Source of the DNA: Escherichia coli
GTDB lineage: Bacteria; Pseudomonadota; Gammaproteobacteria; Enterobacterales; Enterobacteriaceae
NCBI RefSeq assembly: GCF_009931435.1
Contig: NZ_CP043414.1
Reading direction: 5' to 3' (one strand)
DNA: 64,000 nucleotides
The position numbers were made by a program, and so were the translations under genes. The notes under the pieces were generated by a model, which saw nothing but the letters and a program-made list of their open reading frames with translations, did no database searches and was not told the DNA's origin. Shown in pieces: positions 34,057-36,294 of this stretch. Numbering within the stretch: position 1 is the stretch's first letter; each line of letters begins with the position of its first letter.

Positions 34057-34968
34057 GTGAGTACATTAGAACAAACAATAGGCAATACGCCTCTGGTGAA
34101 ATTACAACGAATGGGGCCGGATAACGGCAGTGAAGTGTGGTTAAAGCTGGAAGGCAATAATCCGGCCGGTTCGGTGAAAGATCGTGCGGCGCTTTCGATG
34201 ATCGTCGAGGCGGAAAAGCGCGGGGAAATTAAACCGGGTGATGTGTTAATCGAAGCCACCAGTGGTAACACCGGGATTGCGCTGGCAATGATTGCCGCGC
34301 TAAAAGGCTATCGCATGAAATTGCTGATGCCCGATAACATGAGCCAGGAGCGTCGCGCGGCGATGCGTGCCTACGGTGCGGAGCTGATTCTGGTCACCAA
34401 AGAGCAGGGCATGGAAGGTGCGCGCGATCTGGCGCTGGAGATGGCGAATCGTGGCGAAGGCAAGCTGCTCGATCAGTTTAATAATCCCGATAATCCTTAT
34501 GCGCATTACACCACCACCGGGCCGGAAATCTGGCAGCAAACCGGCGGTCGCATTACCCATTTTGTCTCCAGCATGGGGACGACCGGTACGATTACCGGCG
34601 TGTCGCGCTTTATGCGCGAGCAATCCAAACTGGTGACCATTGTTGGTCTGCAGCCGGAAGAGGGCAGCAGCATTCCCGGCATTCGTCGCTGGCCTGAGGA
34701 ATATCTGCCAGGCATCTTCAACGCTTCGCTGGTGGATGAGGTGCTGGATATTCATCAGCGTGATGCGGAAAACACCATGCGCGAACTGGCAGTGCGGGAA
34801 GGGATTTTCTGCGGTGTAAGTTCCGGTGGCGCGGTTGCCGGAGCACTGCGGGTGGCAAAAGCCAACCCCGGCGCTGTAGTGGTGGCGATCATCTGCGATC
34901 GCGGCGATCGCTACCTTTCTACCGGGGTGTTTGGGGAAGAGCACTTTAGTCAGGGGGCGGGGATTTAA
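34057..34968 (+). CDS. cysM: cysteine synthase B (O-acetylserine sulfhydrylase B)
   Basis: 303 aa; PLP-enzyme motifs SVKDR, GNTG. Confidence 0.93.
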   Translation: MSTLEQTIGNTPLVKLQRMGPDNGSEVWLKLEGNNPAGSVKDRAALSMIVEAEKRGEIKPGDVLIEATSGNTGIALAMIAALKGYRMKLLMPDNMSQERRAAMRAYGAELILVTKEQGMEGARDLALEMANRGEGKLLDQFNNPDNPYAHYTTTGPEIWQQTGGRITHFVSSMGTTGTITGVSRFMREQSKLVTIVGLQPEEGSSIPGIRRWPEEYLPGIFNASLVDEVLDIHQRDAENTMRELAVREGIFCGVSSGGAVAGALRVAKANPGAVVVAIICDRGDRYLSTGVFGEEHFSQGAGI

Positions 34969-34970
34969 GA

Positions 34971-35339
34971 TTATTGTGCAGGCACCGTTTTATCCGTCTG
35001 CGCAATTAACGCATGTAAAAAAGGTTGCGCGTTTTCATCGCTCTTACCAGGCATCTTCACGATATACGGCTTCCCGGTAATCGATGATGACGAAGCAACC
35101 TTATCAATAAATTGCTCAGCAGTATCAATGCGATTACGGGTATTGCCCAGCTTCAGACGCAAATGGGAAACCGCTTCATCGCAGGTATGTTCATCGCCGT
35201 TGCGCACAAATATCAAATCCTTTTTCTGTGCTAATCCCTCCAGCATGGCGTTGATGCGGGCTTCTTCGTGGGCGGTTAACTTCGCGTAAGCGGGGAGTGT
35301 CATTAGCAGTGTAATGACCAGACAAATGATTTTCTTCAC
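34971..35339 (-). CDS. yfeK: periplasmic protein YfeK
   Basis: 122 aa with signal peptide; convergent with cysM. Confidence 0.8.
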
Positions 35340-35442
35340 TGAATTACCTTATCCTTGTTTTGTGATAGCCGATTTGACTGCCAGAATCAGGTAAAGTTTC
35401 GGTTGGGATGCGATGAGGATCATCGGCAAGGAGAAAAATTAA

Positions 35443-36294
35443 ATGAGTAGTTTGTTGTTGTTTAACGATAAGAGCAGAGCGTTGCAGGCGGATGTTGTCG
35501 CGGTGCAGTCGCAGGTGGTGTATGGCAGCGTAGGCAACAGCATCGCCGTGCCTGCTATTAAACAGAACGGCCTGAATGTCTTTGCCGTGCCGACCGTGTT
35601 GCTGAGCAATACGCCGCATTATCACACGTTCTACGGTGGTGCGATTCCGGACGAATGGTTTAGCGGCTATTTGCGTGCGCTTCAGGAGCGTGATGCGCTG
35701 CGCCAGCTGCGCGCTGTCACCACGGGCTATATGGGAACGGCATCGCAAATCAAAATCCTTGCCGAGTGGCTGACTGCGCTACGCAAAGACCATCCTGACT
35801 TATTGATTATGGTCGATCCGGTGATTGGCGATATTGATAGCGGAATTTATGTCAAACCTGACCTTCCTGAGGCATACCGACAATATTTACTGCCTCTGGC
35901 GCAGGGTATTACGCCTAATATCTTTGAGCTGGAAATCCTGACCGGTAAAGATTGCCGCGATCTCGACAGTGCCATTGCCGCAGCAAAAAGTTTGCTTTCA
36001 GACACCTTAAAATGGGTGGTCATTACCAGCGCCTCCGGTAACGAAGAAAATCAGGAGATGCAGGTGGTGGTGGTCAGTGCCGACAGCGTGAATGTCATTT
36101 CCCATTCCCGGGTTAAAACTGACCTGAAAGGGACTGGCGACCTGTTTTGTGCTCAGCTTATCAGTGGTTTGCTGAAAGGGAAGGCGTTAACCGATGCGGT
36201 GCACCGCGCGGGGTTGCGCGTACTGGAAGTGATGCGCTATACCCAGCAGCATGAGAGCGATGAATTGATTTTGCCGCCGCTGGCTGAAGCATAA
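35443..36294 (+). CDS. pdxK: pyridoxal/pyridoxine/pyridoxamine kinase
   Basis: 283 aa ribokinase-fold PdxK sequence. Confidence 0.9.

Follow-up and report, generated by a model that had tools for sequence, protein, structure and literature searches.

At the cysM/yfeK junction of the window, the 64-kb stretch of Escherichia coli DNA analysed here, no gene separates the two convergent coding sequences, where E. coli K-12 has the additional gene yfeS. This absence is an ordinary gene presence/absence polymorphism, of which the window holds the common allele. yfeS is very probably an accessory cassette that has spread horizontally, and the window has the empty allele of the junction, which is in the majority and most likely ancestral.

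Organization of the locus and comparison with K-12

The features of the locus are given in Table 1. cysM is the last gene of the cysPUWAM cluster in the window. The CysM, YfeK and PdxK proteins are 99, 97 and 98% identical in amino acid sequence to their K-12 counterparts. YfeK matches the Pfam family DUF5329 with an E-value of 1.8e-31 (108.7 bits for a cut-off of 27), and a signal peptide is predicted from its N-terminus. The RefSeq annotation of homologous stretches in other genomes is cysM, yfeK and pdxK. The synteny, with cysA-cysM, the convergent yfeK, and pdxK-crr-ptsI, is kept in the window, and the order is identical in the comparison loci L002, L003, L004 and L027. The genes cysM, yfeK and pdxK and the yfeK promoter motif are all intact, and nothing is lost or broken in the window.

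Table 1. Features of the cysM-yfeK-pdxK locus, in window coordinates
Feature	Position	Strand	Description	Source
cysM	34057..34968	+	cysteine synthase B, 303 aa; TAA stop at 34966-34968	ORF list
Spacer GA		34969..34970		2 nt between convergent stops	read from sequence
Polymorphism site	34969..34979		11 nt, GATTATTGTGC, in the empty allele; ~0.96 kb in the filled allele	blastn and comparison with K-12 and L026
yfeK	34971..35339	-	DUF5329 protein, 122 aa, GTG start; stop codon at 34971-34973 on the complement	
Candidate sigmaE-type promoter-like motif	35373..35400	-	GAAACTT-N16-TCAAA, upstream of yfeK; identical to K-12	pattern match
pdxK	35443..36294	+	pyridoxal/pyridoxine/pyridoxamine kinase; divergent from yfeK	ORF list

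An earlier note on this DNA had described the cysM stop at 34968 and the yfeK stop at 34971 as convergent and 2 nt apart, which was confirmed, as GA alone stands between them. It had also stated, with low confidence, that K-12 possesses an extra gene here, yfeS, that the window lacks. The statement was correct: in strain MG1655 (NC_000913.3), the order is pdxK (b2418), yfeK (b2419), yfeS (b2420, annotated as 'PF05406 family protein') and cysM (b2421). The stops of yfeK and cysM are 955 bp apart in MG1655 versus 2 bp in the window, so yfeS is absent from the latter relative to K-12. When window positions 34000-36300 were aligned to K-12 by blastn, two collinear blocks were obtained, split by 962 K-12 bases versus 4 unaligned bases of the window. 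K-12 thus does not have the direct cysM/yfeK adjacency that would have contradicted the note. The K-12 yfeS gene is 735 bp long and encodes a WGR domain (PF05406). No yfeS-like sequence was detected in the whole 64-kb window, where tblastn gave nothing below an E-value of 4 and blastn returned copies of REP repeats only.

MG1655 has the same order and orientation of crr, pdxK, yfeK, cysM and cysA as the window. It differs in that the stops of yfeK and cysM enclose an extra 0.96 kb, made up of yfeS and a REP/BIME repeat. Its YfeK protein also differs, with 124 residues ending in ...TVPAEGN and an ATG start, whereas that of the window has 122 residues ending in ...TVPAQ and a GTG start. Having neither yfeS nor the longer YfeK tail, the window is distinct from the filled (K-12-type, yfeS+) allele. 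It displays instead the contiguous junction, the 2-nt spacer and the ...PAQ tail of the empty allele, with no ORF encoding a WGR domain.

The yfeK start codon (35337-35339, minus strand) varies among strains. The GTG of the window is also found in E. albertii NBRC 107761, and ATG is present in the two genomes closest to the window (L002 and L027), in L026 and in L003, as in K-12. Between cysA and cysM (34001-34039), there is a REP-like palindrome; it gives the sole Rfam signal obtained, a match to the family naRNA4 with 32 bits, below the gathering score of 59.5. Further REP copies are present in the window around 10511-10646, 58356-58408 and 61256-61345.

Distribution of the two alleles in E. 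coli

The empty, direct junction was found in 4,038 of 5,426 complete E. coli genomes (74%), counted as contiguous matches to a 161-bp query spanning the junction. The yfeS segment was found in 1,381 of them (25%), counted as coverage of at least 80% of the 962-bp K-12 segment. The two classes jointly account for 5,419 genomes. The empty junction is present for example in O157:H7, in O111:H8, in ATCC 25922 and in the type strain ATCC 11775, and carriers of yfeS include K-12, BW25113, several ETEC strains and an O9:H10 strain. The architecture of yfeS-less E. coli such as 14EC029, O157:H7 NE92, ATCC 25922 and ATCC 11775 is identical to that of the window, down to the 2-nt spacer and the C-terminal residues of YfeK. 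RefSeq annotation of thousands of genomes already shows whether yfeS is present or absent, and the polymorphism calls for no new concept; a literature search found no paper specifically discussing it.

Related genera and polarity of the change

Species-representative genomes were scanned for YfeK, yielding 22 loci that were typed by tblastn and by reading the junction. The survey covers loci with exact peptide-word matches, among which there are none from Salmonella, Klebsiella, E. fergusonii or E. marmotae. Seven of the 22 loci are devoid of yfeS and show a direct or near-direct adjacency of yfeK and cysM. The two genes are separated by 2 nt in the GTDB representative of E. coli and in Pseudocitrobacter faecalis DSM 27453 (L007), by 1 nt in Enterobacteriaceae UBA5654, by 31 nt in Citrobacter amalonaticus, by 32 nt in Superficieibacter sp. 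and by 57 nt in Entomohabitans, and they overlap by 12 nt in Escherichia sp. E1V33. The 2-nt spacer of the window is common to P. faecalis and to L002, L003 and L004. In this typing, yfeS was encountered only in K-12 and in one Pseudocitrobacter metagenome-assembled genome (MAG, L008), where the ...PAEGN tail of YfeK and the boundaries of the cassette are the same as in K-12.

Judged from these sequences, the junction with stops 2 nt apart and a YfeK ending in ...PAQ, which is the majority state in E. coli, is most likely also the ancestral one, a polarity drawn from limited outgroups amounting to a handful of genera.

Other arrangements were noted in the same survey. In Enterobacter sp. ENT03 (L010), cysM is followed directly by pdxK and is divergent from yfeK. 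Atlantibacter sp. RC6 (L015) has the order crr-yfeK-pdxK-cysM, and no pdxK is found between crr, yfeK and cysM in Entomohabitans (L016).

Lineage of the window

The cysM-pdxK region of the window is about 94% identical to that of most E. coli, a difference of about 6% of the nucleotides. Over a further 23 kb of the window, only 2 of the 5,426 genomes reach at least 99% identity (99.1-99.3%), the rest being at or below about 96%. With only two genomes at this level over 23 kb, the whole window originates from a divergent Escherichia lineage. A mainstream E. coli with a locally divergent segment was rejected, since the divergence extends over these further 23 kb. The two closest relatives, the goat strain R32_14_1F and the human strain 2020CK-00188, are both labelled E. 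coli and both lack yfeS. Their junction architecture is identical to that of the window, to which they are 98.3-98.5% identical at the locus. It is plausible from the nucleotide identities that the source of the window, which NCBI labels E. coli, is a cryptic clade.

The cysA-cysM-yfeK-pdxK block (window 32500-36300) is unusually polymorphic in E. coli, with haplotypes that differ by 6-11% of their nucleotides. Between L003 and L004, the identity in this block is 88-93% per 250-bp bin. The adjacent ptsI (window 36768-37267) is 99-100% identical among the same genomes. The polymorphism of the block is suggestive of old haplotypes that recombine, or of import from other lineages of Escherichia.

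The junction at base resolution

Strain MFDS1022581 (L026) has yfeS, and its flanking sequence matches the window at 99+% identity as far as the junction, so that the difference between the alleles can be read to the base. The empty allele reads ...GGGGATTTAA GATTATTGTGC AGGCACC..., and the filled allele reads ...GGGGATTTAA GGATTAAT [BIME - yfeS - RBS] GGATTAAT TCCCTTCCGC AGGCACC..., where the second GGATTAAT leads into the new tail of yfeK. The cassette is therefore bounded by an exact 8-bp direct repeat (GGATTAAT / ATTAATCC, family D6), with copies 952 bp apart. This repeat could have arisen as a duplication of the target site, or it could serve as a substrate for deletion.

The second possibility bears on whether the window lineage once had the cassette and lost it, by repeat-mediated deletion or by replacement with an empty allele. 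Besides the repeat itself, such a secondary loss is favoured by L026 and about a dozen other genomes, in which yfeS sits between flanks of a haplotype 97-99% identical to that of the window. However, collapse of the repeat is predicted to leave ...TTTAAGGATTAATTYCCTTCCGCAGG, with a YfeK ending in ...PAEGN and a spacer of 3 nt, whereas the window has ...TTTAAGATTATTGTGCAGG and a YfeK ending in ...PAQ. The collapsed junction was found in none of the 5,426 E. coli genomes; no full-length match exceeded 95.3% identity, and the best ones were 6-7 bp shorter. A simple deletion between the repeats was consequently rejected as the source of the empty allele. Moreover, the window shares its junction with thousands of E. 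coli genomes and with P. faecalis, and the two genomes closest to it over 23 kb are also empty. A secondary loss is thus unlikely. The import of an empty allele by allelic replacement in the window lineage is possible.

Composition and spread of the yfeS cassette

The extra segment of K-12 has four parts: yfeS, its ribosome-binding site, a block of REP/BIME repeats, and the replaced last codons of yfeK. The ribosome-binding site is strong and located 32 nt after the yfeK stop. The REP/BIME block lies between yfeS and cysM, with palindromes at positions 5528-5618 of the K-12 locus (L001), and is of a type present in at least 40 copies per genome. The G+C content of yfeS is 39% versus 51% for the locus, and that of its third codon positions is 37% versus about 60% for cysM and pdxK.

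The yfeS genes of K-12 (L001 4750-5484) and of the Pseudocitrobacter MAG (L008 3408-4142) are 95.9% identical in nucleotide sequence, and 92% at third positions. The flanking genes of the same two loci are 80.5% identical for yfeK (59% at third positions) and 89.6% for cysM (73%). As yfeS is far less diverged than its neighbours, the cassette is much younger than its flanks, and the comparison of yfeS with yfeK points to a recent transfer of the cassette between genera. The same cassette with the same boundaries is found on three flank haplotypes, those of K-12, L026 and L008. Between Escherichia and Pseudocitrobacter, identity in yfeK is 90-100% over the 3' half of the gene and 53-80% over its 5' half, and this holds for empty and filled alleles alike. 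Such a gradient is as expected of recombination tracts ending inside yfeK. From these identity gradients, it is presumed that the cassette most likely spread by homologous recombination in its flanks rather than by its own transposition.

Genuine plasmids and phages were searched for YfeS, and no full-length close homologue was found. The other matches were relatives with at most 41% identity in Fusobacterium and partial matches to the WGR domain. One record, the 'plasmid' pZ0117EC0005-3 (NZ_CP098226.1, L028), does hold yfeS; its 50 kb duplicate the chromosomal region that runs from cysW by way of ptsI and cysK to zipA, and the annotation marks all of the genes as frameshifted. It was discarded as most likely an assembly artefact and not a plasmid-borne copy. 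Apart from this record, the cassette is present in a single copy per genome, always at the yfeK/cysM junction.

Other cargo at the junction

Different genes occupy the junction in other species. E. albertii NBRC 107761 has an insert of 1,819 bp with a G+C content of 34.5% (L006 3376-5194), which comprises two ORFs on the same strand, one of 280 aa with no Pfam match and one of 175 aa with a weak match to DKNYY, below the cut-off. Its YfeK ends in ...KTVELKNK. In Superficieibacter electus, a 140-aa SnoaL-like/DUF4440 gene is found downstream of yfeK at the junction (L013 3376-3891). In Citrobacter sedlakii, an ORF of 628 aa without a Pfam match, whose N-terminus resembles a signal peptide, lies downstream of yfeK (L012 3431-5317), and no cysM is present within 3 kb. 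The three cargos are unrelated, and all of them rewrite YfeK after ...KTV. That the junction is a recurrent insertion hotspot, where the repeat-bounded yfeS cassette was moved not by plain recombination but by an undescribed mechanism, perhaps associated with REP sequences and their transposase, is a very doubtful reading.

If the 8-bp repeat were instead a target-site duplication, the yfeS segment might be a small non-autonomous mobile element inserting site-specifically, and the window an unoccupied target. The exact repeat at both ends, the identical boundaries in three unrelated backgrounds, the low divergence of the cassette between genera relative to its flanks, and the alternative cargo in E. 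albertii, S. electus and C. sedlakii would all fit with such an element. Yet the ends of the cassette have no terminal inverted repeats, the palindromes being those of the internal REP/BIME block, and its sole annotated gene is yfeS, with no transposase, integrase or other mobility gene annotated. By chance, the same AT-rich kilobase contains seven other exact 8-bp repeats in two copies. The 8-mer is missing from the empty site, GATTATTGTGC, and an un-duplicated target was found in no allele. These points, together with the restriction to one copy at one locus and the lack of carriage by genuine plasmids or phages, set the segment apart from transposable elements and make this proposal highly improbable. 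An assembly or sequencing error that removed yfeS from the window has practically no credibility and is effectively refuted, as nothing was found in its support, the reading frames on both sides run unbroken to their stops, and the identical junction recurs in other genera and in the 4,038 complete genomes, which were assembled independently.

Transcription of yfeK and yfeS

A listing of the sigmaE regulon includes yfeK together with yfeS (PMC2731931), and the two genes are described as one operon under the sigma24 promoter yfeKp (PMC11502571). Neither gene is mentioned in the main text of Rhodius et al. 2006 (PMC1312014). With this shared operon and promoter, yfeS of K-12 rides on the yfeK transcript, and the corresponding transcript of the window carries yfeK alone.

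No intrinsic bidirectional terminator, with a G+C-rich hairpin and a U-run, was detected by a consensus scan of positions 34500-35500, and there is no room for a terminator in a 2-nt spacer. Folding of the junction gave z-scores of -1.2 and +0.2, denoting no stable structure, and Rfam has no match at the cysM/yfeK junction. By inference, transcription of cysPUWAM and that of yfeK must each terminate within the coding region on the opposite side, for example through Rho or convergent interference.

Origin and significance of the polymorphism

Coming back to the reading of yfeS as a horizontally spread cassette, we infer that it originated in a single event of illegitimate insertion within the final codons of yfeK. 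Insertion at the extreme 3' end of the gene would have given yfeK four new terminal codons, and would have placed yfeS for co-transcription from the sigmaE promoter of yfeK. Both alleles would now circulate between strains, and even between genera, with the conserved 3' ends of cysM and yfeK serving for homologous recombination.

Small accessory-gene islets that lie between conserved core genes and are swapped by flanking homologous recombination are a general pan-genome phenomenon. The yfeS locus resembles them in having two discrete alleles at one core junction, in the low G+C content of a cargo that is younger than its flanks, and in the different cargo held by other species at the same place. 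It differs in that the islet is a single gene with a REP/BIME repeat. The junction being just 2 nt long, every insertion rewrites the last residues of YfeK.

K-12 is an unsafe reference for the 'normal' gene order at this locus, since yfeS is an accessory gene of about one quarter of the complete E. coli genomes. This accessory status also bears on the K-12 phenotypes that are credited to yfeS, among them sigmaE induction and sensitivity to boric acid (PMC2731931, PMC11502571).
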